This document shows positions 2,641-36,955 of a DNA stretch of 45,686 nt, piece after piece; the stretch's first letter is position 1; each line of letters begins with the position of its first letter. A program made the translations under genes and the position numbers. The notes under the pieces are model-generated. The model did not search any database. It saw only the letters and a list, made by a program, of their open reading frames with translations, and was not told the DNA's origin. Source of the DNA: a virus (lineage: Duplodnaviria > Heunggongvirae > Uroviricota > Caudoviricetes); IMG/VR virus record IMGVR_UViG_2663763339_000005, positions 1 to 45,686 of that record; one strand, written 5' to 3'.

Positions 2641-3321
2641 TCATCGCCATTGCTCCCCAAATACAAAACCAATTTCAGCCAGTGCCTCGTCCATTTTTTC
2701 GATGAACTCCGGCACCATCTCGTCAAAACTCGCCATGTACTTTTCATTCCGCTCAATCACGACATAATGCAGGCCTTCACGCTTCATGCGCGGGTCATAG
2801 TTGGCAAAGTACCAGGCATCTTTTCGCGTCACCCACATGCTGTACTGCACCTGGGCCATGTAAGCCGATTTTATTGCCTCGAAACCACCGAGCCGGAATT
2901 TCATGAAATCCCGGGAGGTAAACGGGCATTTCAGTTCAAGGCCGTTGCCGTCACTGCATAAACCATCGGGAGAGCAGGCGGTGCGCATACTTTCGTCGCG
3001 ATAGATGATCGGGGATTCAGTAATATTCACGCCGGAAGTGAATTCAAACAGGGTTCTGGCGTCGTTCTCGTACTGTTTTCCCCAGGCCAGCGCCTTAGCA
3101 TTAACTTCCGGAGCCACACCGGTGCAAACCTCAGCCAGCAGGGTGTGGAAGTAGGACATTTTCATGTCAGGCCACTTCTTTCCTGAGCGGGGCTTTGCTA
3201 TCACGTTGTGAACTTCTGAAGCGGTGATGACGCCGAGCCGTAATTTGTGCCATGCATCATCCCCCTGTTCGACAGCTCTCACGTCGATCCCGGTACGCTG
3301 CAGGATAATGTCCGGTATCAT
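2641..3321 (-). CDS. exo: Lambda exonuclease (Red alpha)
   Basis: 226 aa, near-identical to remembered lambda Exo ([43 protein letters not shown]...). Confidence 0.95.
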
Positions 3322-6376: not shown

Positions 6377-6916
6377 ATGCAACCACTTACATACCAACAG
6401 ACTAGCGGATTTAGCCCGACTGCGGTGATAAATCGTTCTCAAACAAAACAGGTGCCAGGCCACGAAAAAATCCGTGATGCCGTCCGCGCCTGGTCGGCTG
6501 AAGATAATCAGGATGTCGTTGCCGCACTCATTGTGAATGAGTATCGAGCACAGGGCGGCGGCACTATCGATTTTTCTGATGATGTCAGTCGTGCACGCCA
6601 GAAGCTGTTCCGCTTTCTCGATAACAAATTCGATTCTGAAAAATACCGAAATAACGTGCGTGAACTGACTCCAGCAATTCTGGCAGTACTACCGCTGAAA
6701 TATCGCGGCCACCTGGTTGAGCAGGATAGCTTCATGGCTCGGCTGGCTGAAATGGAAAAGGAACTCAGTGAGGCAAAACAGGCTGTCATTCTCAACGCAC
6801 CACGCCACCAGAAACTGAAGGAAATTAGTGAAGGTATTGTGTCGATGTTTCGTGTGGACCCAGATCTGGCTGGTCCATTGATGGCGATGGTTACTACCAT
6901 GCTGGGGGCGATATGA
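6377..6916 (+). CDS. YdaT-like regulatory protein in the cII position
   Basis: 179 aa following cro-like gene; resembles Rac-prophage YdaT family by position and composition (recalled, not searched). Confidence 0.4.
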   Translation: MQPLTYQQTSGFSPTAVINRSQTKQVPGHEKIRDAVRAWSAEDNQDVVAALIVNEYRAQGGGTIDFSDDVSRARQKLFRFLDNKFDSEKYRNNVRELTPAILAVLPLKYRGHLVEQDSFMARLAEMEKELSEAKQAVILNAPRHQKLKEISEGIVSMFRVDPDLAGPLMAMVTTMLGAI

Positions 6917-9587: not shown

Positions 9588-11114
9588 ATGAAAAAAGCCA
9601 TAGCATATATGCGATTTTCATCACCAGGTCAGATGTCTGGCGACTCATTAAACCGACAGAGAAGACTTATTGCTGAATGGTTAAAGGTAAATAGTGATTA
9701 TTATCTTGATACCATAACATATGAAGATTTAGGATTAAGTGCATTCAAAGGAAAGCATGCACAATCAGGAGCTTTTTCGGAATTTTTAGATGCTATAGAG
9801 CATGGTTATATATTGCCAGGAACTACATTGTTAGTTGAAAGTCTGGACAGACTTTCAAGAGAAAAAGTCGGTGAAGCGATTGAGCGTCTGAAATTGATTT
9901 TGAATCACGGTATTGATGTTATAACTCTTTGCGATAATACAGTCTATAATATTGACTCTTTGAATGATCCATATTCATTAATAAAAGCCATACTTATAGC
10001 ACAAAGGGCAAATGAAGAAAGCGAGATAAAGTCAAGTCGGGTTAAATTATCATGGAAGAAAAAACGGCAGGATGCACTGGAGTCAGGCACGATTATGACG
10101 GCGTCTTGTCCGAGATGGCTCTCCTTAGATGACAAAAGAACGGCTTTTGTTCCAGACCCCGACAGGGTGAAAACTATTGAGCTAATTTTTAAACTCAGGA
10201 TGGAAAGGCGCTCATTGAATGCAATAGCCAAGTATTTAAATGATCATGCTGTAAAGAATTTCTCAGGAAAAGAAAGTGCATGGGGACCTTCTGTAATTGA
10301 AAAATTATTAGCGAATAAAGCTCTGATAGGTATATGCGTACCTTCATATCGTGCAAGAGGTAAAGGAATAAGTGAAATCGCTGGCTATTATCCCAGAGTC
10401 ATATCAGATGATTTGTTTTACGCTGTGCAGGAAATTCGGTTGGCACCTTTTGGTATTAGCAATAGTAGCAAAAACCCTATGTTGATAAATCTACTTCGAA
10501 CAGTTATGAAGTGCGAGGCTTGTGGTAATACCATGATTGTTCATGCGGTATCTGGAAGTTTGCATGGCTATTATGTTTGTCCGATGAGAAGACTGCATCG
10601 ATGTGACAGGCCATCAATAAAGAGAGATTTGGTTGATTATAATATCATTAATGAGTTGCTTTTTAATTGTAGTAAAATCCAACCAGTTGAAAACAAGAAA
10701 GATGCTAATGAAACTTTAGAGTTGAAAATTATTGAGCTCCAGATGAAAATTAATAATTTAATTGCTGCATTATCTGTTGCGCCTGAAGTTACCGCTATAG
10801 CAGAAAAAATCAGAGTATTAGATAAGGAATTACGAAGGGCTTCTGTATCATTAAAAACTTTGAAGAGTAAAGCGGTGAGCTCACTTGGTGATTTTCATGC
10901 TATTGACTTAACCAGTAAAAATGGGCGAGAGCTATGTCGTACACTTGCCTATAAAACATTCGAAAAAATCATAATCAATACAGATAATAAAACCTGTGAT
11001 ATCTATTTTATGAATGGCATTGTTTTTAAACACTATCCTTTAATGAAAACAATATCCGCCCAGCAGGCGATAAGTACTCTCAAATATATGGTTGATGGTG
11101 AGGTTTATTTTTGA
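9588..11114 (+). CDS. ybcK: Large serine recombinase (resolvase-domain N-terminus, zinc ribbon, coiled coil), YbcK-like
   Basis: 508 aa; N-terminal resolvase fold with catalytic Ser in AIAYMRFSSPGQ; cysteine cluster CEACGN...CPMRRLHRC; AT-rich codon usage indicating foreign origin. Confidence 0.85.
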   Translation: MKKAIAYMRFSSPGQMSGDSLNRQRRLIAEWLKVNSDYYLDTITYEDLGLSAFKGKHAQSGAFSEFLDAIEHGYILPGTTLLVESLDRLSREKVGEAIERLKLILNHGIDVITLCDNTVYNIDSLNDPYSLIKAILIAQRANEESEIKSSRVKLSWKKKRQDALESGTIMTASCPRWLSLDDKRTAFVPDPDRVKTIELIFKLRMERRSLNAIAKYLNDHAVKNFSGKESAWGPSVIEKLLANKALIGICVPSYRARGKGISEIAGYYPRVISDDLFYAVQEIRLAPFGISNSSKNPMLINLLRTVMKCEACGNTMIVHAVSGSLHGYYVCPMRRLHRCDRPSIKRDLVDYNIINELLFNCSKIQPVENKKDANETLELKIIELQMKINNLIAALSVAPEVTAIAEKIRVLDKELRRASVSLKTLKSKAVSSLGDFHAIDLTSKNGRELCRTLAYKTFEKIIINTDNKTCDIYFMNGIVFKHYPLMKTISAQQAISTLKYMVDGEVYF

Positions 11115-14936: not shown

Positions 14937-16034
14937 TTAGAACTGGTAAACCAGACCTACAGCAACGATGTCATCAGTGCTTACACCGAGTGCTTTAGTG
15001 AAGTCATTTTTGTCAAGCAGGTTGATTTTGTAATCAACGAAAGTAGACATATTTTTGTTGAAGTAATAGGTTGCACCTACATCAACATATTTGACTAAGT
15101 CCTGATCGCCCCATACTCCAAGATCTTTACCTTTAGATTGCAGGTAAGCAACGGACGGACGCAGACCGAAATCGAACTGATATTGTGCAACAGCTTCGAA
15201 GTTTTGGGCTTTATTAGCAACGAAGTGATCAGCAAATACAGTCATATTCTGGGTTTCAGAATAGGTAGTGGCCAGGTAAATGTTGTTAGCGTCATATTTC
15301 AGACCTGCGGCCCAAACTTCTGCATTTTTACCGGAAGCAAATACTTCAGGAAGAACTTTCCCTGCATTAACTTGAGTGTCGGTACGATCAGATTTCGCAT
15401 AAGTTGCACCGATACCGAATCCTTCGTATTCATAGGTAGCAGAGAAACCGAAGCCATCACCGTTACCTTCAGTGTAGTTATCGAAATCGCTACGATCGTT
15501 TTTGCCTTGGTACTGAGCAGCAAAGTTCAGACCATCAACCAGACCAAAGAAGTCGTTGTTACGATAGGTTGCAACACCAGTGGTGCGACCAGTCATGAAC
15601 ACATCTGTTTGGGTCCAGGTATCGCCACCGAATTCTGGCAGAACGTCAGTCCACGCACCGATGTCGTATGCTACACCGTAGTTACGGCCGTAATCGATTG
15701 AGCCGTAGTCACCGAATTTCAGGCCTGCAAATGCAAGACGGGTTTTGTCTTTGGAGGAACCTTGAGATTCAGCGCGGTTGCCTTTGAATTCATATTCCCA
15801 CTGACCGAAACCAGTCAGTTGATCGTTGATTTGGGTTTCACCTTTGAAGCCAAGACGGGCATAAGTAGTATCACCATCATCTGCATCATTAGAGGAGAAG
15901 TAGTGCTTGGCATTAACTTTCCCGTACAGATCCAGCTTGTTACTGTCTTTATTATAAATTTCAGCTGCCTGAGCAGACATCGCCATCAGTACTGATGCAG
16001 CTACAGCAGAAATTGCCACTGTTAATTTTTTCAT
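14937..16034 (-). CDS. nmpC: Outer membrane porin NmpC (OmpC/OmpF family), intact
   Basis: 365 aa with signal peptide [23 protein letters not shown] and C-terminal ...VGLVYQF beta-barrel terminus; no IS interruption. Confidence 0.93.
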
Positions 16035-18834: not shown

Positions 18835-19050
18835 ATTTTTGCGGGTCCTTTCCGGCGATCCGACAGGTTACGGGGCGGCGACCTCGCGGGTTTTCGCTAT
18901 TTATGAAAATTTTCCGGTTTAAGGCGTTTCCGTTCTTCTTCGTCATAACTTAATGTTTTTATTTAAAATACCCTCTGAAAAGAAAGGAAACGACAGGTGC
19001 TGAAAGCGAGCTTTTTGGCCTCTGTCGTTTCCTTTCTCTGTTTTTGTCCG
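18835..19050 (+). other. Helper prophage cos site (cosQ-cosN-cosB); cosN 12-nt cohesive end GGGCGGCGACCT at 18863-18874
   Basis: Sequence gcgggtcctttccggcgatccgacaggttacgGGGCGGCGACCTcgcgggttttcgctatttatgaaaattttccggtttaagg... matches the remembered lambda genome ends; immediately upstream of Nu1. Confidence 0.93.
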
Positions 19051-25005: not shown

Positions 25006-25281
25006 ATGTCGATTTACACAACCGCCCAGCTGCTGGCGGCAAATGAGCAGAAATTTAAGTTTGATCCGCTGTTTCTGCGTCTCTTTTTCCGTGAGAGCTA
25101 TCCCTTCACCACGGAGAAAGTCTATCTCTCACAAATTCCGGGACTGGTAAACATGGCGCTGTACGTTTCGCCGATTGTTTCCGGTGAGGTTATCCGTTCC
25201 CGTGGCGGATCCACCTCTGAATTTACACCGGGATATGTCAAGCCCAAGCACTTAGCATGGCTTTCTGAGGCTTTCGTGTAG
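25006..25281 (+). pseudogene. E: Major capsid protein E, 5' fragment (codons 1-81 intact, then 9 element-derived codons and stop), disrupted by insertion
   Basis: MSIYTTAQLLAANEQKFKFDPLFLRLFFRESYPFTTEKVYLSQIPGLVNMALYVSPIVSGEVIRSRGGSTSEFTPGYVKPKH matches lambda gpE N-terminus; divergence begins exactly after 25250. Confidence 0.92.
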
Positions 25282-25413
25282 TTGCTGGTTTTTACACTTA
25301 ATCTTTTGATAATAAAGAATAAGTTTATCTGGCGCTTTCACTGGATTTTCCTCGTTATCTGTGTGTTGCAATCATCTCTGTATTGCAGCTTGTATTGCTT
25401 TTTGGGGCTAAAA

Positions 25414-26649
25414 ATGGCTGGCGAGAACAAACTGAGCGACAAAGCACTTAAAGGATATCTGGGGAAACCCAGAGAAAAGCAGATCACCATTGCTGATGGA
25501 AAGGGGCTTTCTATTCGTGTGAGTACCAAGGGGGCTGTGAGCTTTGTTTTCTTCTACAGGTTAGCAGGTGGCCGGGCTGCTCCGGTCTGGCTAACGTTGG
25601 GTAAATATCCTGATATGTCACTCAAACAGGCAAGGGAAAAGCGCGACGAGTGCCGTGGTTGGTTGGCTGACAAACGTGATCCGCGTATCCAGATTAAGAT
25701 TCAGGCTGAAGAACGCTTAAAGCCGGTCACAGTGGAGGATGCACTAAATTACTGGTATGAAAATTACTGTAAGGTGCGTCGTAAAACTCATGCTGTAACG
25801 CTTGGCAGATTTCGAAAGCATATCTTTCCCTATATCGGTCATTTGCCCGTAAATGACACTCACCTATATGAATGGCTGGACTGTTTTGACCGAATTAAAC
25901 GTAATGCACCAGTTATGGCGGCGTATGTTTTTTCTGACACTAAATTAGCTCTTCGTTTTTGTCGGGTACGCCAGTACGCGACGTGTGATGCTTTAAAGGA
26001 TTTGCGCATGAGTGATGTGGGGCAGATTGCAGGTAAGCGGGATCGGGTTCTGGATGAAGCCGAACTGGGCCAGCTCTGGAAGGCAATTTTTGTCGAGCCT
26101 GATTTAAAACTAATGTCTGAATACACGCGAAAAATGTTTGTGCTTTGTACAGTATTTGGATGTCGAATGAGTGAAGCCCGATTATCTGAATGGAGCGAAT
26201 GGGATCTCGAAAGTTGGGTTTGGACTGTACCAAAAGATCACTCAAAAACTGGTGTTGAAATCGTCAGACCAGTACCTGAAATTCTACGACAGTGGGTAAC
26301 GGATGTTCACGAAGAGACAAAACATACTGGTTATGTGCTGGGAAGTCTGCGAATTAGAGAAAGCGTAAGCAAGATTGGGGGGAAAATCGGTAAACGTTTG
26401 GGCCATGAAAAACAATGGTCACTACACGACCTTAGAAGAACGCTATCTACTCATCTAAGTGATCTCGGTGTTGAATTTTATGTAGTAGAACAACTGTTAG
26501 GCCATGCGCTACCTGGCGTGGCAGGTGTTTACAACCGGAGTAAGTTTATGGCTAAAAAACTGGATGCTCTGGAACTCTGGACTACATATCTCAATAGCAT
26601 CGCAGGTGCTGATTCAAAAGTGACAATCCTCAAACAAAAGGCTGGTTAA
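25414..26649 (+). CDS. Tyrosine integrase, P4-like family (element integrase)
   Basis: ORF 25282..26649; start at Met 25414 (MAGENKLSDKALKGY...); C-terminal HDLRRT...GH...Y catalytic motifs; adjacent to left attachment junction. Confidence 0.88.
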   Translation: MAGENKLSDKALKGYLGKPREKQITIADGKGLSIRVSTKGAVSFVFFYRLAGGRAAPVWLTLGKYPDMSLKQAREKRDECRGWLADKRDPRIQIKIQAEERLKPVTVEDALNYWYENYCKVRRKTHAVTLGRFRKHIFPYIGHLPVNDTHLYEWLDCFDRIKRNAPVMAAYVFSDTKLALRFCRVRQYATCDALKDLRMSDVGQIAGKRDRVLDEAELGQLWKAIFVEPDLKLMSEYTRKMFVLCTVFGCRMSEARLSEWSEWDLESWVWTVPKDHSKTGVEIVRPVPEILRQWVTDVHEETKHTGYVLGSLRIRESVSKIGGKIGKRLGHEKQWSLHDLRRTLSTHLSDLGVEFYVVEQLLGHALPGVAGVYNRSKFMAKKLDALELWTTYLNSIAGADSKVTILKQKAG

Positions 26650-26650
26650 C

Positions 26651-26878
26651 ATGAAAAAAATGGCAATTGTTGATAAAAAGGGTCTGGAGTACATTCCTAA
26701 CATCGATCGTATGATCCGTGAGAAAGAATGTCGGGAGCTAACCACTCTTGCAAACAGCACACGCTGGAAGCTGGAGAAGGAAGGAAAATTTCCTAAGCGG
26801 ATCAAGATTGGTTCCACTGCTGTTGCATATCGTCTTTCAGAAGTGCAGGCATGGATTCGAGGTGAGTGGGTAGTTTAA
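26651..26878 (+). CDS. AlpA-like transcriptional regulator/excisionase
   Basis: 75 aa; ...RELTTLANSTRWKLEKEGKFPKRIKIGSTAVAYRLSEVQAWI is a typical AlpA HTH; directly downstream of integrase. Confidence 0.8.
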   Translation: MKKMAIVDKKGLEYIPNIDRMIREKECRELTTLANSTRWKLEKEGKFPKRIKIGSTAVAYRLSEVQAWIRGEWVV

Positions 26879-26947: not shown

Positions 26948-27484
26948 TTATAAGAGATTAAATCCAAATAAAGAGTAATCATATACCGGGGTGCATTGCA
27001 TCCCACTGAATATGCTGATGTTTTTTTCTGTTTCTATCCTTTTTTCAATAAGTTGTTGTATATTTTTACAGTACAATTTGTGTGTGATGTTATTATCGTA
27101 AGCCTGATATAGCAACGTCAATGTTGACGCTAGGAAACATACAGATAAAATTAAAATAATATATGCAGTTTTTTTATTTTTTGTCCATGATCTATTTGTT
27201 TGTGAAATATAAAGAATTCTGAGGTGGATAATGGTGAGAGACAATAGCAGGCCACTCAATAAAATAAGTATTGGGTTTGCGTATTTTATTAATGGTTGAG
27301 AGCAAAAAACTATTATAGCTCCTGTGACTGCGTATGAGAAAAAGGAGTGATTAAACTTCTTACTCCTTCTCTCAAGTATTTTAATTTCATCTTGTGTGGG
27401 GGTTTTAGATGCCTCTAATATAAGTTTATTGAATGTTTCTGTTATCTTGTTTTTTGTGTTTGTGGCTATTTTTTTTAGATTCAT
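26948..27484 (-). CDS. Hypothetical membrane protein (element cargo)
   Basis: 178 aa, very AT-rich, hydrophobic segments (AVTGAIIVFCSQPLI..., ILILLSGLLLSLTIIHL..., AYIILILSVCFLASTLTLL); opposite strand to core element genes. Confidence 0.5.
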   Translation of the reverse strand: MNLKKIATNTKNKITETFNKLILEASKTPTQDEIKILERRSKKFNHSFFSYAVTGAIIVFCSQPLIKYANPILILLSGLLLSLTIIHLRILYISQTNRSWTKNKKTAYIILILSVCFLASTLTLLYQAYDNNITHKLYCKNIQQLIEKRIETEKNISIFSGMQCTPVYDYSLFGFNLL

Positions 27485-28930: not shown

Positions 28931-29218
28931 ATGAAAAATAAATTTTCTGGCTTTATTGCCAGCGGTCAAACTCATTCAAAAATCAGCCTTGGGGATATTT
29001 TCAAAGATAGCTATGGCTATCGAGTAAAGATTATTTCGGTTGATGATCGCCGTGTCTCTTATTTGCGTGATGGTTATGATTTTGAATGTGTTATGCCGCG
29101 TCAGCAGTTCGAAAGAGATTTCATTCTGGTAAAAAATTGCAAGACAGATAATCAGAGGCGTGCCGCAGGCTATATCCGCAAAATTCGGGCAATGTTAGTT
29201 GCCGGAGGTAACAAATGA
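28931..29218 (+). CDS. Hypothetical protein
   Basis: 95-aa ORF immediately upstream of and overlapping primase start. Confidence 0.4.
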   Translation: MKNKFSGFIASGQTHSKISLGDIFKDSYGYRVKIISVDDRRVSYLRDGYDFECVMPRQQFERDFILVKNCKTDNQRRAAGYIRKIRAMLVAGGNK

Positions 29219-31035
29219 AACGTGCTCCGAACTTAAAATACCAACCGCGCGACAAAATGACAGAAGTCATCATTTTTGCTGGCAGTGATGCCTGGAGCCA
29301 TGCAAAAGAATGGAATGAATGGGCGGGTAAGCATATTGCAGCAGATGATACACCACCAGTAATTCTGGGTACGGAACAACTGGAAAACCTGGATGATATG
29401 CAAATTATCGATGAAGGCCGTCATTATGTGCGTGTTTATCGTGCCGGAAAGATCGCAGAGAAAAATCTGACGAAGGTTGCGACATTACTTGCTATTGCAG
29501 GCGTAAAGGAAGCACGTTGTTACCGTAGCTTTGTTGATCGAGAGCCTGAAGACTGGACTCCGCGCCTTGTCGGCCTAAAAGCTGAAGCGGAGCATGGGGA
29601 AAGTCTGGTGATTGAACTGCCAGTGAAGAAGGCAGAGCGCAAAAATGACGAGCGTGCTTCATCTTTGGCGTTGAATCAGATGGGGGCCAGCCAGCGCGGT
29701 GAAGTTCTCCTGGCACATTACGGCGGCGAACTGGCAATCAATGCCGACTCTGACACCGTTCATCATTACAACGGCGTTGTATGGGAGCCGGTTCAGGATA
29801 AAGAGTTACAGCGTGCTATGGCGCAGATTTTCATTGATGCGGAGATCAGCTATTCGCAGAACGCCATTAAATCGGCGGTAGATACCATGAAGTTAAGTTT
29901 GCCTGTAATGGGGAATACAGCCCGTAACCTGATTGGATTCAGTAACGGGGTATTTGATACCAGAACAGGTAATTTTCGGGATCATAACAAAAACGACTGG
30001 TTGTTAATTGCCAGTGAATTACCTTTCAGCCCACCAGCAGAGGGGGAAACGCTGGCAACACATGCGCCGAATTTCTGGAAGTGGTTGCGCCGTTCGGTGG
30101 CTGAGAATGACCGCAAGGCAGATCGCGTACTGGCGGCATTATTCATGGTGCTGGCGAACCGGTACGACTGGCAGTTATTCATTGAGGTAACAGGGCCGGG
30201 GGGAAGTGGTAAAAGCGTGATGGCGGAGATTTGCACCATGCTGGCGGGTAAGGCTAATACAGTATCAGCAAGCATGAAGGCGCTGGAAGATGCAAGGGAA
30301 CGTGCGTTAGTGGTTGGCTTTTCGCTGATTATCATGCCGGATATGACCCGCTACGCTGGTGATGGGGCAGGGATTAAGGCCATTACAGGCGGTGACAAGG
30401 TGGCAATTGACCCGAAACACAAAGCCCCCTATTCAACGCGTATTCCGGCAGTAGTGCTGGCGGTTAACAATAACGCCATGTCATTCAGTGACCGCAGCGG
30501 GGGGATCTCACGTCGTCGGGTGATATTCAATTTTTCGGAAGTTGTACCGGAGAACGAACGCGATTCGATGCTGGCGGAAAAAATAGAAGGTGAGCTGGCG
30601 GTAGTGATTCGTCATCTGCTTACACGGTTTGCTGATCAGGACGAAGCCAGACGCCTGTTATATGAGCAGCAGAAATCTGAAGAAGCACTGGCGATAAAGC
30701 GAGAGGGGGATTCGCTGGTGGACTTCTGCGGCTATCTCATGGCATCGGTAATGTGTGATGGCCTGTTAGTGGGTAATGCTGAAATTGTGCCATTCAGCCC
30801 ACGCAGGTATCTCTATCATGCCTATCTGGCTTATATGAGGGCACATGGGTTTGGTAAACCTGTAACACTGACGCGCTTCGGTAAAGATATGCCGGGGGCA
30901 ATGGCGGAATATGGCAGGGAGTATATGAAACGGAAAACGAAGCACGGTTTGCGTTCAAACGTGACACTGACGGAGGAATCAGAAGACTGGATGCCATCAT
31001 GTGTATCGGTCACTAATGACGATAGCAAAAATTAA
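29215..31035 (+). CDS. Primase/helicase, phage-plasmid P4-family (D5_N + SF3 helicase-like C-terminal domain)
   Basis: 606 aa; Walker A GPGGSGKS; region NGVFDTRTGNFRDHNKNDW...; followed by iteron array. Confidence 0.85.
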   Translation: MKRAPNLKYQPRDKMTEVIIFAGSDAWSHAKEWNEWAGKHIAADDTPPVILGTEQLENLDDMQIIDEGRHYVRVYRAGKIAEKNLTKVATLLAIAGVKEARCYRSFVDREPEDWTPRLVGLKAEAEHGESLVIELPVKKAERKNDERASSLALNQMGASQRGEVLLAHYGGELAINADSDTVHHYNGVVWEPVQDKELQRAMAQIFIDAEISYSQNAIKSAVDTMKLSLPVMGNTARNLIGFSNGVFDTRTGNFRDHNKNDWLLIASELPFSPPAEGETLATHAPNFWKWLRRSVAENDRKADRVLAALFMVLANRYDWQLFIEVTGPGGSGKSVMAEICTMLAGKANTVSASMKALEDARERALVVGFSLIIMPDMTRYAGDGAGIKAITGGDKVAIDPKHKAPYSTRIPAVVLAVNNNAMSFSDRSGGISRRRVIFNFSEVVPENERDSMLAEKIEGELAVVIRHLLTRFADQDEARRLLYEQQKSEEALAIKREGDSLVDFCGYLMASVMCDGLLVGNAEIVPFSPRRYLYHAYLAYMRAHGFGKPVTLTRFGKDMPGAMAEYGREYMKRKTKHGLRSNVTLTEESEDWMPSCVSVTNDDSKN

Positions 31036-31048
31036 ACTTATGGAATAA

Positions 31049-31280
31049 CTGTTCACCACTGTTCACCCTGTCATAAATATCTTTTATATCAGTATATTAT
31101 AGGGTGAACAGTTATTTATGAACTGTTCACCAAACTATTCACTGTTCACCTTTTTGATTGTTTATTGAGCTTCAAGGGTGAACAGTGGTGAACAGTTGGT
31201 GAATAGTTTTTGTGAAACTGTTCACCCATTAACATTATGAATTAAAAGAGAAAATATCAAAAGGTGAACAGGTGAAGGGT
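31049..31280. repeat. Element replication origin: ~10 copies of TGTTCACC/GGTGAACA iterons in both orientations
   Basis: ctgttcaccactgttcaccc, gggtgaacagtt, gaactgttcacc, cactgttcacc, gggtgaacagtggtgaacagttggtgaatag, actgttcaccc, aggtgaacaggtgaaggg read directly. Confidence 0.8.
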
Positions 31281-32231: not shown

Positions 32232-33272
32232 ATGGTTGATTTATATTCGCCTACTCAGCTTGTACAGGTGGTTAATGCTGTAGATGTACAAAAACAACTA
32301 AATGCGTTGTTTACCAGTTTGTTTTTTACTCGCTCGGTAATGTTTGAATCGCGCGATATTATTCTTGATACAATCGACGATCCAAATATCCCAATTGCAG
32401 CGTTTTGTTCTCCTATGGTGGGTAGTAAAGTTTCACGTGACGAAGGGTACGAATCAAAAACAATTCGTCCAGGCTATATGAAGCCGAAAAGCAGCATTGA
32501 TCCAAATAAGTTAGCTGTGCGCCCTGCTGGTGTATCACCTGAGCAATACAATGCTTTTGGGGCGCGTAATATTAAAGTTAAACAGGCGATTGTAAATCAA
32601 GCTAAAGCTATTCGTGCACGTATTGAATGGCTTGCTGTTCAGGCAATCACAACGGGGAAAAATATCATTGAGGGCGATGGTATTGAACGTTATGAGCTGG
32701 ACTGGAATATTAAACCACAAAATATCATCACTCAGTCTGGCGGTGCTGAGTGGTCAGGTAAGGATAAAGAAACTTTTGATCCAAATGATGATATTGAGAG
32801 CTACGCAGAATTTAGTGAGGGCGTCACTAATATTATCATTATGGGCGGTAATGTATGGAAGAAATACCGTTCATTCAGAGCGATAAAAGAGGCTCTGGAT
32901 ACCCGTCGTGGTTCTAATTCCGAACTGGAAACGGCCCTTAAAGACCTTGGTGATTCGGTGAGTTTTAAAGGGTATATGGGCGATGTTGCGATTGTTGTTT
33001 ACAGCGGGCGTTATACCGACGAGGACGGAACAGAAAAACATTTCCTTGATCCTGATTTGATGGTGCTTGGCAATACGGCTCTTCAGGGGATTGTCGCCTA
33101 TGGCGGTATTCAGGATCCGGAGCTAATCCGAATGGGGCTGACTAAAGCCGAACTTGCACCGAAAAACTATATTGTGCCTGGTGATCCGGCTATTGAATAT
33201 GTGCAGACACATTCAGCACCACAGCCAATACCGGCCCGCATCAATCGTTTTGTTACCGTTCGCATTGGCTAA
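32232..33272 (+). CDS. Major capsid protein, lambda gpE family (element-encoded divergent paralogue)
   Basis: ORF 32058..33272; start Met 32232 preceded by AGAGGA; clear alignment to lambda E (ITQSGGAEWSGKDKETFDPNDDIESYAEF...NIIIMGGNVWKKYRSFRAIKEALDTRRGSNSELETALKDLG..YKG..GDVAIVVYSG); ~346 aa versus 341 for lambda E. Confidence 0.88.
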   Translation: MVDLYSPTQLVQVVNAVDVQKQLNALFTSLFFTRSVMFESRDIILDTIDDPNIPIAAFCSPMVGSKVSRDEGYESKTIRPGYMKPKSSIDPNKLAVRPAGVSPEQYNAFGARNIKVKQAIVNQAKAIRARIEWLAVQAITTGKNIIEGDGIERYELDWNIKPQNIITQSGGAEWSGKDKETFDPNDDIESYAEFSEGVTNIIIMGGNVWKKYRSFRAIKEALDTRRGSNSELETALKDLGDSVSFKGYMGDVAIVVYSGRYTDEDGTEKHFLDPDLMVLGNTALQGIVAYGGIQDPELIRMGLTKAELAPKNYIVPGDPAIEYVQTHSAPQPIPARINRFVTVRIG

Positions 33273-33634: not shown

Positions 33635-34018
33635 ATGCAGAATGATTACAATGACCTTAAGCCAATTGCCGAAATGATGTACCCGAATCAAGCTGTAGAG
33701 GAATTAAAAGCTATCGCTGACAAAATGTGTTTAAGCGAGCGCCTTGTTGATATGAATCAGGTGATGGAAATTACAACCCTGAGTCGTCGTACACTGCTAA
33801 ACCTTGAGGCTAGTGGAGAGTTCCCGGAGCGTGTGCAGGTTACGGAAGGGCGTAAGGCCTGGTATTTAAGTGAAGTGATCGACTGGATAAATAATATTCC
33901 TCGCGCTTCTGAATATTGCCGCGTACCTGTCCCAAAAAAGCCAGATGCGGCGCTATGCCTCAAGATTGAGCGTGTACGCCGCAATGCACGGGATGGTCGC
34001 TATAAGCTGATTGGTTGA
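33635..34018 (+). CDS. Small HTH protein adjacent to element cos (candidate packaging-redirection / Nu1-like DNA-binding factor)
   Basis: 127 aa; MNQVMEITTLSRRTLLNLEASGEFPERVQVTEGRKAWYLSEVIDWI is a MerR/AlpA-like winged HTH; ends just upstream of cos-like site. Confidence 0.45.
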   Translation: MQNDYNDLKPIAEMMYPNQAVEELKAIADKMCLSERLVDMNQVMEITTLSRRTLLNLEASGEFPERVQVTEGRKAWYLSEVIDWINNIPRASEYCRVPVPKKPDAALCLKIERVRRNARDGRYKLIG

Positions 34019-34029
34019 TGAAATTAGGG

Positions 34030-34250
34030 CCCGCTCTGGCTGGCGGGTCCTTTCCGGCGATCCAGGACGTTACGGGGCGTCAGGCGCGCAGATTCTTGCT
34101 ATTTATGACAATTTTCTGCGATTTGCCGTTTCTGTTCTTCTTCGTTGTAACTATATGTTATTAATGGAAATGCCACCTAAAAAGAAAGGAAATGGTAAGC
34201 GCTATTTTGAGCTAAAAACAGCTTAACCGTTTCCTTTCTCCAAAATTTAC
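34030..34250 (+). other. Element cos-like site (lambda-like cosQ, variant cosN GGGCGTCAGGCG at 34075-34086, cosB-like R/IHF elements)
   Basis: ggcgggtcctttccggcgatccaggacgttacgGGGCGTCAGGCGcgcagattcttgctatttatgacaattttctgcgatttgccgtttctgttcttcttcg...aaaaagaaaggaaatgg aligns block-by-block with the helper cos at 18840-19040. Confidence 0.8.
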
Positions 34251-34260
34251 TGAGGCGGCT

Positions 34261-34686
34261 ATGAATCCATGCGCAGAAGTCATGACAACTATCAAACTAA
34301 GCGGATCTTTAGCTTCTTTGTTCGCCAGAGAACATCAGCGCCTTATCGGTCCGACGCGTGAGGCATTAAGGGTATTATCAGCCACTATTCCGGGATTTGA
34401 GAAATTCATGAACACTAGCAAGGCTTGAGGACTCACTTTCGCCGTGTTTGTGGATAAAAATAATGTCGCGCAGGATGATCTCGATTTTCCAAATGGTGGT
34501 CGTACGATTCGAATTGTTCCGATCATTATGGGGAGTAAGCGTGCTGGTGTTCTGCAAACCATTCTTGGCGCTTTCTTGGTGGTTGGTGGTGTTCTGGGGG
34601 CAACGATAGGGCAAGCATGGAACGGTGGTGTGTGGAGCGGCAAGTATTTTCTATTGGCAGAAGCCCATTCCGCCAAGATAGGCTAG
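34261..34686 (+). pseudogene. Tail assembly protein I-like ORF interrupted by a single in-frame TGA (34426-34428)
   Basis: N-part MNPCAEVMTTIKLSGSLASLFAREHQRLIGPTREALRVLSATIPGFEKF and C-part ...RTIRIVPIIMGSKRAGVLQTILGAFLVVGG resemble helper gpI (LYGDLQRFGRRIDLRVKTGAEAIRALATQLPAFRQKL / AVIHIVPRVAGAKSGGVFQIVLGAAAIAG); same frame across the stop. Confidence 0.45.
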
Positions 34687-34781
34687 ACGTATAAGATCGG
34701 TTACAATCTATAAATCAGCTGTTGAATTATTGAATTTTAACCATATTTATCAGATGGACTTCATTCAAAAAGGTAACTTTG

Positions 34782-35468
34782 ATGGCCGGACAATTAGACG
34801 AAGCAGCAAAACAGATTTTGGGTACCTTACTGGCAGATTTTACAGATCGAGGGTTAACTGCACAGGATTTAAAAAATGGTTATGAAGGCCCGAACATCAA
34901 TGCGCTAGCTACTGCAGTATGCAACGTCGCTGATTTTACATCTGTAGATTTTGAAGTTGCCTTTGGCGATCTCGAAAAAAGCAAACTAATCAAAACTGGC
35001 CCCATGAAAATGTTCGATAATGATCACAATAGCTCTGTGATCATTATTGCTTCTTATAGCCTACGTGAATATGTTTATTTGACGGAGGCTGGATACAAGG
35101 AGTCCAGGAAAGTACCAAATCGCCCACAACGTGTTCAGCGTATAGTCAATAATCTAACGATCACCGGCGGACATTTCAGCAATACGCAATTAGGGCAGGG
35201 AGAGGTCGTTTCCCAAACCCAAAACATCACAAGCAGTTCCGATTCTGAAATAGTTGCTAAGCTGATTTCTATCATTGAAGAACAGGGGCAAGTAGTTAAC
35301 AGCGATCAACGTTCTGATATTGAAGCAGCTGTGGCAGCCGCTAATGAAGGTGATGGTAAAGAAGCGAAATCATTGCTGTCTAAAGTATGCGGTCCTGTTT
35401 GGGAGTCTGTGCAACCAGTAATATGGCCGATCATTGGTGAGTTGGTTAAGAAAGGGCTCGGGATTTAA
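34782..35468 (+). CDS. Hypothetical protein (element cargo, unknown function)
   Basis: ORF 34779..35468; ATG 34782 preceded by AGGT; 228 aa, acidic, no recognised family. Confidence 0.45.
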   Translation: MAGQLDEAAKQILGTLLADFTDRGLTAQDLKNGYEGPNINALATAVCNVADFTSVDFEVAFGDLEKSKLIKTGPMKMFDNDHNSSVIIIASYSLREYVYLTEAGYKESRKVPNRPQRVQRIVNNLTITGGHFSNTQLGQGEVVSQTQNITSSSDSEIVAKLISIIEEQGQVVNSDQRSDIEAAVAAANEGDGKEAKSLLSKVCGPVWESVQPVIWPIIGELVKKGLGI

Positions 35469-35660
35469 TTTAATAAATTCTAAAAGGGCTGTTTGGGTAG
35501 TATTTTTATGGGGCTCTTCAATTAAAAGGAGTCATAGGGTCAAACGATGTGCCTATGACTCCTGGATAAAGCCATCAGAGAATATTAGTGTTAACAATTT
35601 CTCTTCAGCCCTTGTTTATACGATGCCAGCTTCAGAACCGAATCAACGCTCATGCGATCT

Positions 35661-35954
35661 TTAGCATCTCGGTAATGACAGTAAGTTATTATTCCATCGA
35701 CCATCAGCATAAGTACGTATAAATTTCCGCCCTCCCCCTCCTGGATCAACGACACCTACATCAGCACGTTTGCCATAACTATCAGTGACATAGAAAGTAT
35801 GTAACTTGTTCTCAATTGAATTAACTACATCTGCCACAGTCCACTTACTTCCAGGGGGATTAAATTGAGGGCTTCCCACATGAGTAATGTGTTCATGAAG
35901 GGCGTTCGAACTGGAGAGAGTAATACAAGTTAATCGTACATCAACCATCTTCAA
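35661..35954 (-). CDS. Hypothetical small protein, possibly DUF3892-like (element cargo near right junction)
   Basis: 97 aa with ITHVG and NNLLSLPRC motifs recalled as DUF3892-like; opposite strand, AT-rich. Confidence 0.4.
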   Translation of the reverse strand: MKMVDVRLTCITLSSSNALHEHITHVGSPQFNPPGSKWTVADVVNSIENKLHTFYVTDSYGKRADVGVVDPGGGGRKFIRTYADGRWNNNLLSLPRC

Positions 35955-36174
35955 CTCCTTATTTACTGTGAAAAATCATAAGATACAGCATGTATCGAAA
36001 TACAGCAGGGTGAACAATTTCGATTTACGAGGACTTAGCAAAGTCTCTTTCTCTTAAACTGTGGGCTTGTATTGCAGGTTGTATTGCAACTGTAGCTAAG
36101 CAATATCAGTTGTAAGCTTTATTTCTTTTACAGTCAATCGTATAGCATCGTATTTGACTCATGTAGCCCAAGCA

Positions 36175-36955
36175 TGAGGTGAATCCGCAGATGACCCTGC
36201 GTCGCCTGCCGGATGAAGATCCACAGAATCTGGCGGACCCGGCTTACCGCCGCCGTCGCATCATCCTGCAGAACATGCGAGACGAAGAGCTGGCCATTGC
36301 TCAGGTCGAAGAGATGCAGGCAGTTTCTGCCGTGCTTAAGGGCAAATACACCATGACCGGTGAAGCCTTCGATCCGGTTGAAGTGGATATGGGCCGCAGT
36401 GTGGCGAACAACATCACGCAGTCCGGCGGTACGGAGTGGAGCAAGCGTGACAAGTCCACGTATGACCCGACCGACGATATCGAAGCCTACGCGCTGAACG
36501 CCAGCGGTGTGGTGAATATCATCGTGTTTGATCCGAAAGGCTGGGCGCTGTTCCGTTCCTTCAAAGCCGTCAGGGAGAAGCTGGATACCCGTCGCGGCTC
36601 TAATTCCGAGCTGGAGACAGCGGTAAAAGACCTGGGCGAAGCGGTGTCCTATAAGGGGATGTATGGCGATACGGCGATCGTCGTGTATTCCGGACAGTAC
36701 GTGGAAAACGACGTCAAAAAGAACTTCCTTCCGGACAACACGATGGTGCTGGGGAACACTCAGGCACGCGGTCTGCGCACCTATGGCTGCATTCAGGATG
36801 CGGACGCACAGCGCGAAGGTATTAACGCCTCTGCCCGCTACCCGAAAAACTGGGTGACCACCGGCGATCCGGCGCGTGAGTTCACCATGATTCAGTCAGC
36901 ACCGCTGATGCTGCTGGCTGACCCTGATGCGTTCGTGTCCGTACAACTGGCGTAA
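36175..36955 (+). pseudogene. E: Major capsid protein E, 3' fragment (codon 82 to stop), separated from 5' fragment by the inserted element
   Basis: ...HEVNPQMTLRRLPDEDPQNLADPAYRRRRIILQNMRDEELAIAQVEEMQ... matches lambda gpE; in-frame TAG immediately upstream of the junction; 245 nt (5' part) + 781 nt = 1026 nt, the exact length of lambda E. Confidence 0.92.

Follow-up and report, generated by a model that had tools for sequence, protein, structure and literature searches.

Doubled arm-type repeats at the probable attachment site of a helper-embedded PICI in the capsid gene of a lambda-like prophage

The window analysed here – the whole 45,686-nucleotide (45.7-kb) stretch of viral DNA – contains a short interval, 25251-25413, that lies between the broken end of a phage capsid gene and the start codon of an integrase gene. 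Close to that start codon is a doubled repeat, and the same repeat, doubled again and in the same orientation, recurs at the far end of a 10,924-bp insert. What is this interval, to what kind of element does it belong, and which protein reads the repeats? Our analysis indicates that the segment 25251-36164, together with one copy of a 10-bp core, is a phage-inducible chromosomal island (PICI) of the helper-embedded kind, or HE-PICI, lying co-oriented in the prophage gene E, and that the interval is the P′ arm of its attP; we put the probability of this reading at roughly 0.85.

An insert in prophage gene E

The window is a lambda-like prophage, with a CI-type repressor, O-like replication genes, and terminase, portal, D, FI and tail genes. 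Its lambda-type major capsid gene, E, is interrupted at 25250/36175, and the terminase, portal, D, FI and tail genes lie on the same strand around the split gene, which is the late-gene location of HE-PICIs. The features that define the junctions and the principal genes of the insert are as follows.

25006-25250, + strand: 5′ fragment of prophage E, codons 1-81 with the first 2 nt of codon 82 (from the list of open reading frames)
25241-25250, + strand: attL copy of the identity block AGCCCAAGCA, an exact duplicate (0.05 expected)
25414-26649, + strand: tyrosine integrase, 411 aa (Pfam Arm-DNA-bind_3, 3.7e-19; Phage_integrase, 1e-16)
26651-26878, + strand: AlpA-family protein, 75 aa (Pfam Phage_AlpA, 2.8e-15)
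29215-31035, + strand: D5/P4-type primase (Pfam)
31034-31250: iterons, following the primase
32232-33272, + strand: the element's own E-type capsid gene (Pfam Phage_cap_E, 2.4e-41)
36165-36174, + strand: attR copy of the identity block, an exact duplicate
36175-36955, + strand: 3′ fragment of prophage E (from the list of open reading frames and the restored E)

The insert is bounded by the exact 10-bp direct repeat AGCCCAAGCA (25241-25250 and 36165-36174), and identity between attL and attR stops at these 10 bp, with no extension on either side. The block is present in exactly two copies in the 45.7-kb window, where about 0.05 would be expected by chance; two copies were obtained in none of 100 shuffles. 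The first-pass annotation had placed a 10-bp core at both junctions and had located it within the codons for GYVKPKH of gpE, and both statements are borne out: joining 25006-25250 to 36175-36955 yields an uninterrupted E protein of 341 aa, in which the core falls in the K-P-K-H codons of that peptide (codons 79-82). In the interrupted gene, by comparison, the frame of the 5′ fragment runs past the junction into a stop codon that ends at 25281. The block has the published a[g/a]cc[c/g]aagca form and sits at about codon 80 of the Phage_cap_E profile. A tRNA scan of the window found no tRNA; the target is thus not a tRNA.

Evidence that the junctions mark a site at which the gene was once whole comes from other genomes. 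The reconstructed empty site (260 nt) matches, at 100% identity, uninterrupted genes annotated as 'major capsid protein' in further E. coli genomes. Of 5426 complete E. coli genomes, 3102 contain it largely intact, and it is present in 80 phage records, lambda-named phages among them. The junction running from the E fragment through attL into int was found in 173 genomes, and 177 have the integrase at no less than 95% identity, from which it follows that nearly all copies of the element occupy the E site. The closest whole-element matches are in strains 1218KP and AREA_C483 (99.9%), while the element of NRG857C matches 82% of the query at 98.9% identity.

The main genes of the element are all co-directional with E. 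Their order is int, AlpA, Icd-like, DUF4222, primase, iterons, SSB, E-type capsid and D-type decoration, followed by a second AlpA-like gene and then by variable cargo. Pfam recognises Int, AlpA, DUF4222, the D5-type primase, SSB, Phage_cap_E and HDPD; the Icd-like protein is annotated in the near-identical (99.9%) copy L001. This is the organisation of a PICI – int and alpA, a regulatory zone, primase and ori, late genes – and the RefSeq annotation of the 99.9% copy agrees with it. The integrase itself has an N-terminal Arm-DNA-bind_3 domain (PF13356) apart from the catalytic domain (PF00589), as befits a heterobivalent recombinase; the N-terminal domain matches the integrase N-terminal structures 3JU0 and 3JTZ, neither of which was solved with DNA. 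The AlpA-family protein encoded at 26651-26878 is a candidate excision directionality factor.

The element, its core and its repeat motif were published in 2023, and the present result is a correct rediscovery (Tommasini, Mageeney and Williams 2023, NAR Genom Bioinform; preprint 2022; PMC10111431). That study named the family helper-embedded PICIs and recorded 14 integration sites in nine late genes. Its prototype is Eco567.11capE of E. coli NRG857c; the corresponding site group, E:Phage_cap_E:80, is defined by a 10-bp identity block in gene E, with 201 instances of the site and the variants agcccaagca, aacccaagca and agccgaagca listed in the supplement. Mitomycin C induced precise excision of 11capE, as documented by qPCR and deep sequencing (PMC10111431). 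The window element is a member of this group, which is known in detail. Its int is 99.7% DNA-identical to that of E. coli NRG857C, which places the integrase in the 11capE clade; the target codon, the 10-bp block, the doubled motif with its distances, and the order int, alpA, primase, SSB, E-like capsid and D-like decoration are likewise the same, and only the variable cargo beside attR differs. What is added here to the published account is a layout shared with P4, the fis PICI and the tRNA-Ile2 PICI, a probable 7-bp overlap, a candidate IHF site and the conservation of the integrase arm domain.

The reconstructed attP runs from about 36060 to 36174 and then from 25251 to 25413. One human-gut metagenome contig matched the predicted attP junction pattern: along it come primase, capsid and cargo, then a P arm carrying the doubled motif, the core AACCCAAGCA, the P′ arm and int, which is the order expected of an excised circle or of a tandem copy. 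Coverage of the contig is low (2.86x, taken from the contig name), and it may represent a tandem copy rather than a circle. The pattern had no match in viral contigs, and contiguous attP was absent from all 5426 complete E. coli genomes searched.

The arms of attP, the overlap and a candidate bend site

The elements of the reconstructed site, other than the two copies of the block, are these.

25251-25413, + strand: P′ arm, from the core to the int start codon on the insert side; the interval with which this analysis began
25299-25311, - strand: candidate IHF site TATCAAAAGATTA in the P′ arm, 59.5 bp from the core centre
25362-25370, + strand: degenerate third repeat copy TGTGTTGCA, 17 bp upstream of the left pair
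25379-25399, + strand: P′ doubled repeat TGTATTGCA-gct-TGTATTGCT, with columns invariant across six elements
36068-36088, + strand: P-arm doubled repeat TGTATTGCA-ggt-TGTATTGCA, with columns invariant across five elements
36158-36181, + strand: attR core region CTCATGT-AGCCCAA-GCATGAG-GTG, as read from the sequence

At each end of the insert the TGTATTGC repeat is doubled at a spacing of 12 bp, and its orientation is the same at both ends. There are three exact copies of TGTATTGCA in the window, at 25379, 36068 and 36080, every one of them on the + strand and at an end of the insert; the expectation is about 0.44 copies, and three copies were seen in 0 of 100 shuffles. The second copy on the left is TGTATTGCT, at 25391. 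The 20-nt doubled form, TGTATTGCNNNNTGTATTGC, is expected 0.03 times and, window-wide, is found solely at 25379-25398 and 36068-36087, on the + strand. Single copies carrying one mismatch to TGTATTGCA occur at the chance rate (15 found, 15.06 expected) and were rejected as meaningful: with no enrichment among these, the signal resides in copies that are exact, doubled and located at the ends. The degenerate third copy is partly kept, as CGTTGCA, in relatives from the E site and the C site. We also considered whether this copy, at 25362, and a TGTGTTGCA in the P′ arm of the fis PICI might be one shared site, and rejected the equation, the two lying at +116 and +65 respectively.

Measured from the core, the doubled repeat of the P arm extends from -104 to -81, the second, co-oriented pair from +132 to +153, and the int ATG follows at about +168. 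Put more exactly, the P-arm pair ends 81.5 bp before the core centre, and the P′ pair with its 2-nt lead starts 131.5 bp after it, stopping about 15 nt short of the int ATG. These distances agree with those published for the doubled motif tgTGTATTGCantgTGTATTGCa, namely 81 ± 2 bp from the attP centre on its upstream side and 132 ± 2 bp on its downstream side (PMC10111431). The positions at which the repeats had originally been noticed, 25377-25398 and 36066-36090, are right, and the interval drawn around the left pair is exactly the insert-side arm, from the core to the int ATG at 25414. Between the E fragment and int a scan of the P′ arm found no terminator on the + strand, and the accompanying promoter scan returned one weak sigma-70-like site (25291-25320; 9/12 matches, 0.5 expected), too weak to define an int promoter.

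The position of strand exchange can be narrowed by comparison with relatives. In the Kosakonia and Cedecea elements attL and attR share no more than the block's first 7 bp (AGCCAAA and AACCAAA). Because these identity blocks are 7 bp long, we infer that the crossover, or overlap, of the window element is probably the first 7 bp of its own block, AGCCCAA at 25241-25247. The structure of attR lends support: around the presumed 7-bp overlap there is a 7-bp inverted repeat, complementary at 6/7 positions, and the same symmetry is seen in the Kosakonia and Cedecea relatives (L002, L003). Clear core-type inverted repeats are found in attR only, the half-sites of attL being weak; the attR inverted repeat is offered as a candidate for the core-type half-sites of Int.

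Within the P′ arm, 25299-25311 is the sole perfect match in the whole window to WATCAANNNNTTR, the IHF core consensus. Matches with at most one mismatch stand at +61 to +65 in four further elements – those of Kosakonia and Cedecea, the protease-site element and the fis PICI – and in the portal-site element a match was looked for and was absent. The presence of an IHF match near +60 suggests a bend site, at which the P′ arm would be folded back on the core.

The protein that reads the repeats

A scan of contigs with the integrase gave three loci only (Kosakonia, Cedecea and a partial locus from Kluyvera); for that reason the more distant relatives were taken from a DNA search of E. coli genomes. 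At the E site, the integrases of Kosakonia and Cedecea are 89% and 83% identical to the window Int, and both elements keep the doubled motif and its spacing. Other relatives occupy other sites. One E. coli element lies in a ClpP-type protease gene and another in a portal gene; their blocks, ATGATGATCCAT and AAGGCGAT respectively, are unrelated to that of the window, and each carries the same doubled motif at nearly the same distances. In a third element, inserted in a terminase gene, the motif stands upstream of int; the locus compared here stops short of that element's opposite end. When both arms were aligned, the doubled motif was the only block conserved across site groups, and in most elements the P′ pair ends 14-17 nt ahead of the int ATG.

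The integrase is divided in a corresponding manner. Between site groups its arm domain (residues 1-95) is 63-76% identical and the rest of the protein 40-53%, and in the DNA-level search the arm-domain part of int alone was detectable in the distant groups. A constant arm domain and a constant motif, combined with diverging core-binding and catalytic parts, is what the model of an integrase with separate arm sites predicts. The repeats lie on both arms, are unrelated in sequence to the core, and are kept when the core changes. The original suggestion of a tyrosine-integrase att site with arm-type binding sites is hence supported from several directions: by the domains of Int, the empty site and the attP contig, and also by retention of the motif in relatives with unrelated cores and by the layout of P4, to which we return below.

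The mechanism that we propose begins with a heterobivalent Int that would bind the core through its core-binding and catalytic domains, while its N-terminal arm domains would occupy the four TGTATTGC half-sites, one for each protomer of a tetramer. DNA bending would fold the arms back onto the core, and strand exchange within the overlap would either integrate the element into E or excise it. Excision, probably aided by AlpA, would restore E exactly (GTC AAG CCC AAG CAT GAG). Since the P′ repeats stop about 15 nt ahead of the start codon of int, the bound protein would probably also dampen expression of that gene. Arrangements of this kind have been described in related systems: the arm sites of IntS overlap the intS promoter in KplE1 (PMC2951348), and the title of Piazzolla et al. 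2006, cited in the same paper, states that expression of the P4 integrase is negatively regulated by Int and Vis.

A critical issue is the identity of the protein that binds the repeats, for which the published study listed the Int arm domains, AlpA or some other protein (PMC10111431). On the sequence comparisons made here we consider it probable that the arm domain of Int reads the TGTATTGC repeats: the motif is found on both arms, far from the core, and four half-sites are available to a tetramer. The alternative is that AlpA, a winged-helix protein of the excisionase type, binds doubled TGTATTGC in place of Int and thereby sets the direction of recombination, regulates int, or both. The gene encoding this AlpA-family protein follows directly after int, AlpA has been named as a possible binder, and the abstract of PMC7498355 gives direct repeats at intervals of one helical turn as the typical binding sites of directionality factors, a spacing also seen here. 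Moreover, AlpA is 59-69% identical among the motif-sharing E, C and B groups and 32-39% identical to the AlpA of the fis PICI, which has another repeat. We nonetheless regard binding by AlpA as unlikely. A motif placed on both arms, some 81 and 132 bp from the core, has the pattern of Int arm sites, whereas the sites of directionality factors, as with lambda Xis, are usually on one arm. In the terminase-site element the motif is unchanged while AlpA is just 44-49% identical, with a predicted recognition region that reads ALGRRHRS as against TLANSTRW; the Int arm domain, in contrast, stays within the 63-76% range. With the P′ copy ending 14-17 nt ahead of the int ATG, a promoter could not be fitted in downstream of an activator site; the position would suit an arm site or repression rather than activation, and the equivalent repeats of P4 are annotated as attP arm repeats. 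Covariation between the HE-PICI and fis clades favours Int, albeit not decisively: both Int and AlpA differ between the two, and the comparison does not cleanly separate them because AlpA also changes between clades with different repeats.

Two other possibilities concern how E came to be the target and whether the site still works. The first-pass annotation had pointed out that the element's own capsid gene encodes GYMKPKS at the position homologous to GYVKPKH, and had seen in this a hint of how the target was acquired. The homology is real – the capsid protein of the element shares 41% identity with the restored E, and GYMKPKS, encoded at 32472-32492, aligns with GYVKPKH – whereas the hint is not upheld. 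It is very unlikely that this gene explains the targeting of E by the integrase: its DNA at the aligned position, AGCCGAAAAG, matches the core at just 6/10 positions, and for sister integrases the targets are portal, protease and terminase genes. In the portal-site element (L006), furthermore, there are homologues of E and D and no portal gene is annotated, which indicates that carriage of a capsid gene does not follow the target. The likeness has been explained by capture of nearby helper late genes, with the proposal that differences at the site in the element's own capsid gene would prevent self-integration (PMC10111431); capture of such genes by an element living in that region fits better than the capsid-gene hint. 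As to activity, some related copies lie in degraded prophages (the D gene next to the AREA_C483 copy is truncated by an IS3), and this, together with the count of 0/5426 for contiguous attP, would be compatible with the insert being a dead remnant whose repeats no longer act as a recombination site. We hold that to be extremely improbable, given that int, alpA, the core copies and the four half-sites are intact in the window, that the near-identical int of NRG857C belongs to an element that excises precisely on induction, that a metagenome contains the attP junction of a related element, and that repressor, replication, terminase, portal and tail genes are all retained in the prophage around the insert.

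One layout in several clades

A comparable architecture is found in other elements. The record of phage P4 (NC_001609) annotates a 12-nt 'attP arm sequence repeat'. As in the window element, the P4 integrase has an arm-type DNA-binding domain, and two co-oriented tandem 12-nt repeats stand on each side of the core, the P′ pair about 16 nt before the int ATG. The particulars differ. The repeats of P4 lie at 63.5 bp (P) and 122.5 bp (P′) from the core centre, against 81.5 and 131.5 bp in the window element; the repeat consensus is TTGGGGGCAT rather than TGTATTGCA; the core is of 20 bp rather than a 10-bp block; the two integrases are 21% identical overall; and P4 has additional, inverted repeat copies at and inside int. 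Beyond the attP architecture the two have in common a P4-type primase, an Icd-like protein and AlpA only. P4-like satellites are recognised by psu, sid, delta, epsilon and alpha. Ten element ORFs scanned with Pfam gave no hits to Sid/Psu or Delta/Epsilon of P4 (none is annotated in the 99.9% copy either), and in place of sid, psu and delta there are E-like and D-like genes. Rfam, applied to the whole window at gathering thresholds, found nothing, and so no P4-type immunity RNA was detected there.

The fis PICI of E. coli PE15 (L009) is another such element, its integrase belonging to a sister clade (46-51% identity). Here the repeat is TGTATAAAC, likewise doubled, with its copies spaced by 12 bp. 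Relative to the block centre, one pair begins at +137, finishing 20 nt short of the int ATG, and the other ends at -76; the 38-kb locus has no exact copies beyond these four. A perfect IHF consensus lies at +65. Integration is into the 3′ end of a chromosomal gene, the function of which is kept. According to PMC10111431 the HE-PICI motif is absent from other PICIs, sister fis PICIs included; judged from the sequences compared here, this is true of the motif itself and untrue of the architecture. A further instance is the tRNA-Ile2 PICI that hosts the protease-site element, which has the doubled repeat GGTATCCTA at both ends. This PICI has been said to be without alpA (PMC10111431), and it has an HTH_17 protein.

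Parallels extend to the lambda-type systems, lambda Int and the IntS/TorI system of KplE1 (PMC2951348). These share with the window element arm-type sites, different from the core, on either arm, and an int gene beside attL with P′ sites over its expression signals; the probable short overlap and the candidate bend site between core and arm would be further points in common. The window element departs from them in that its arm sites are strictly paired, two plus two, at fixed spacing, in that the N-terminal domain is of a different family (Arm-DNA-bind_3), and in that the target gene is disrupted, attP carrying no replacement sequence for it.

Four clades are accordingly found with one layout: HE-PICIs with the repeat TGTATTGCA, the fis PICI with TGTATAAACA, the tRNA-Ile2 PICI with GGTATCCTA and P4 with TTGGGGGCAT. 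We lean, if only slightly, towards the view that a doubled arm repeat is a general attP design of P4/PICI-type integrases bearing Arm-DNA-bind_3. The geometry held in common may consist of one pair some 65-90 bp before the core, another some 120-140 bp beyond the core, just upstream of int, and a bend site near +60. Should this be true, the arm domain and its repeat would be a co-evolving recognition pair, fixed while core specificity moves among late genes, and the natural variants could be used to read the recognition code of the arm domain.

The position has consequences for helper and satellite. Because the satellite sits in the capsid gene, there can be no helper heads until the satellite leaves; replication and transcription of the helper can take in the satellite as well. 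The comparisons made here narrow two linked questions, namely which protein reads the TGTATTGC repeats and how the arm architecture can stay the same while core specificity moves among late genes.

Attachment-site layout across related elements

One issue is whether the doubled arm-type repeat is peculiar to HE-PICIs: their motif is stated to be absent from fis PICIs (Tommasini, Mageeney and Williams 2023, PMC10111431). The fis PICI of E. coli PE15 (L009) nonetheless carries a doubled repeat of its own, TGTATAAAC, at 18902-18922 and 3011-3031 of the locus (minus strand), and the positions of these pairs relative to core and int match those of the HE-PICI motif. The stated absence holds for sequence, but not for architecture. 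Doubled repeats also mark both ends of the tRNA-Ile2 PICI within which the protease-site HE-PICI of an E. coli locus (L005) is housed: there GGTATCCTA is doubled with 11-bp spacing, at about 6701-6720 and about 27081-27100, and the integrase of this tRNA-Ile2 PICI, like that of the satellite, has an Arm-DNA-bind_3 domain.

A human gut metagenome contig of low coverage (ORSG01002381) runs continuously from the right end of a related element through the core to the left end and int. Judged by this order, the segment (6601-6629 of locus L008) is an attP junction, derived from either an excised or a tandem form.

The P′ arm of the satellite, between core and int, contains a further candidate feature:

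25299-25311, minus strand: candidate IHF site, perfect consensus WATCAANNNNTTR, at +59.5 from the core centre

This is the sole occurrence of the perfect consensus across the window; in four related elements IHF near-matches lie at +61 to +65.

Prophage genes outside the satellite

Two open reading frames of the prophage itself deserve mention:

9588-11114: large serine recombinase (508 aa), prophage early region
14937-16034, minus strand: 365-aa open reading frame on the opposite strand, between the early and lysis regions

The serine recombinase is distinct from the satellite's tyrosine integrase. At the position equivalent to the 365-aa frame, a related prophage (that of the portal-site element locus, L006) has an annotated OmpC-type porin.

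Cargo and a second AlpA

Towards attR the satellite encodes the following:

33635-34018: second AlpA-family protein (127 aa), 3′ of the satellite capsid and decoration genes
34200-36060: variable cargo region, adjoining attR

The second AlpA is longer than the int-adjacent AlpA, with which it shares only 27% identity. The cargo here comprises a protein of unknown function (229 aa) alongside a DUF3892-like protein of 97 aa (minus strand). Because close relatives carry differing genes in this region – TIR, DUF262 plus HEPN, abortive-infection, DUF2971 or small-terminase – it looks like a hotspot for defence or cargo genes.

Probable replication and possible packaging signals

Immediately 3′ of the primase gene lies a set of clustered repeats:

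31034-31250: GGTGAACAGT/ACTGTTCACC iterons, direct and inverted

These clusters are probably the satellite's origin of replication. Elsewhere, 150 bp of the element (34043-34192) match the prophage at 18841-18990 with 78% identity, and the prophage partner sits directly upstream of the small terminase gene. The element segment has the appearance of a cos-like copy; a comparable shared segment has been described for the prototype element 11capE (PMC10111431). If the segment is indeed such a copy, the helper terminase could package the satellite.
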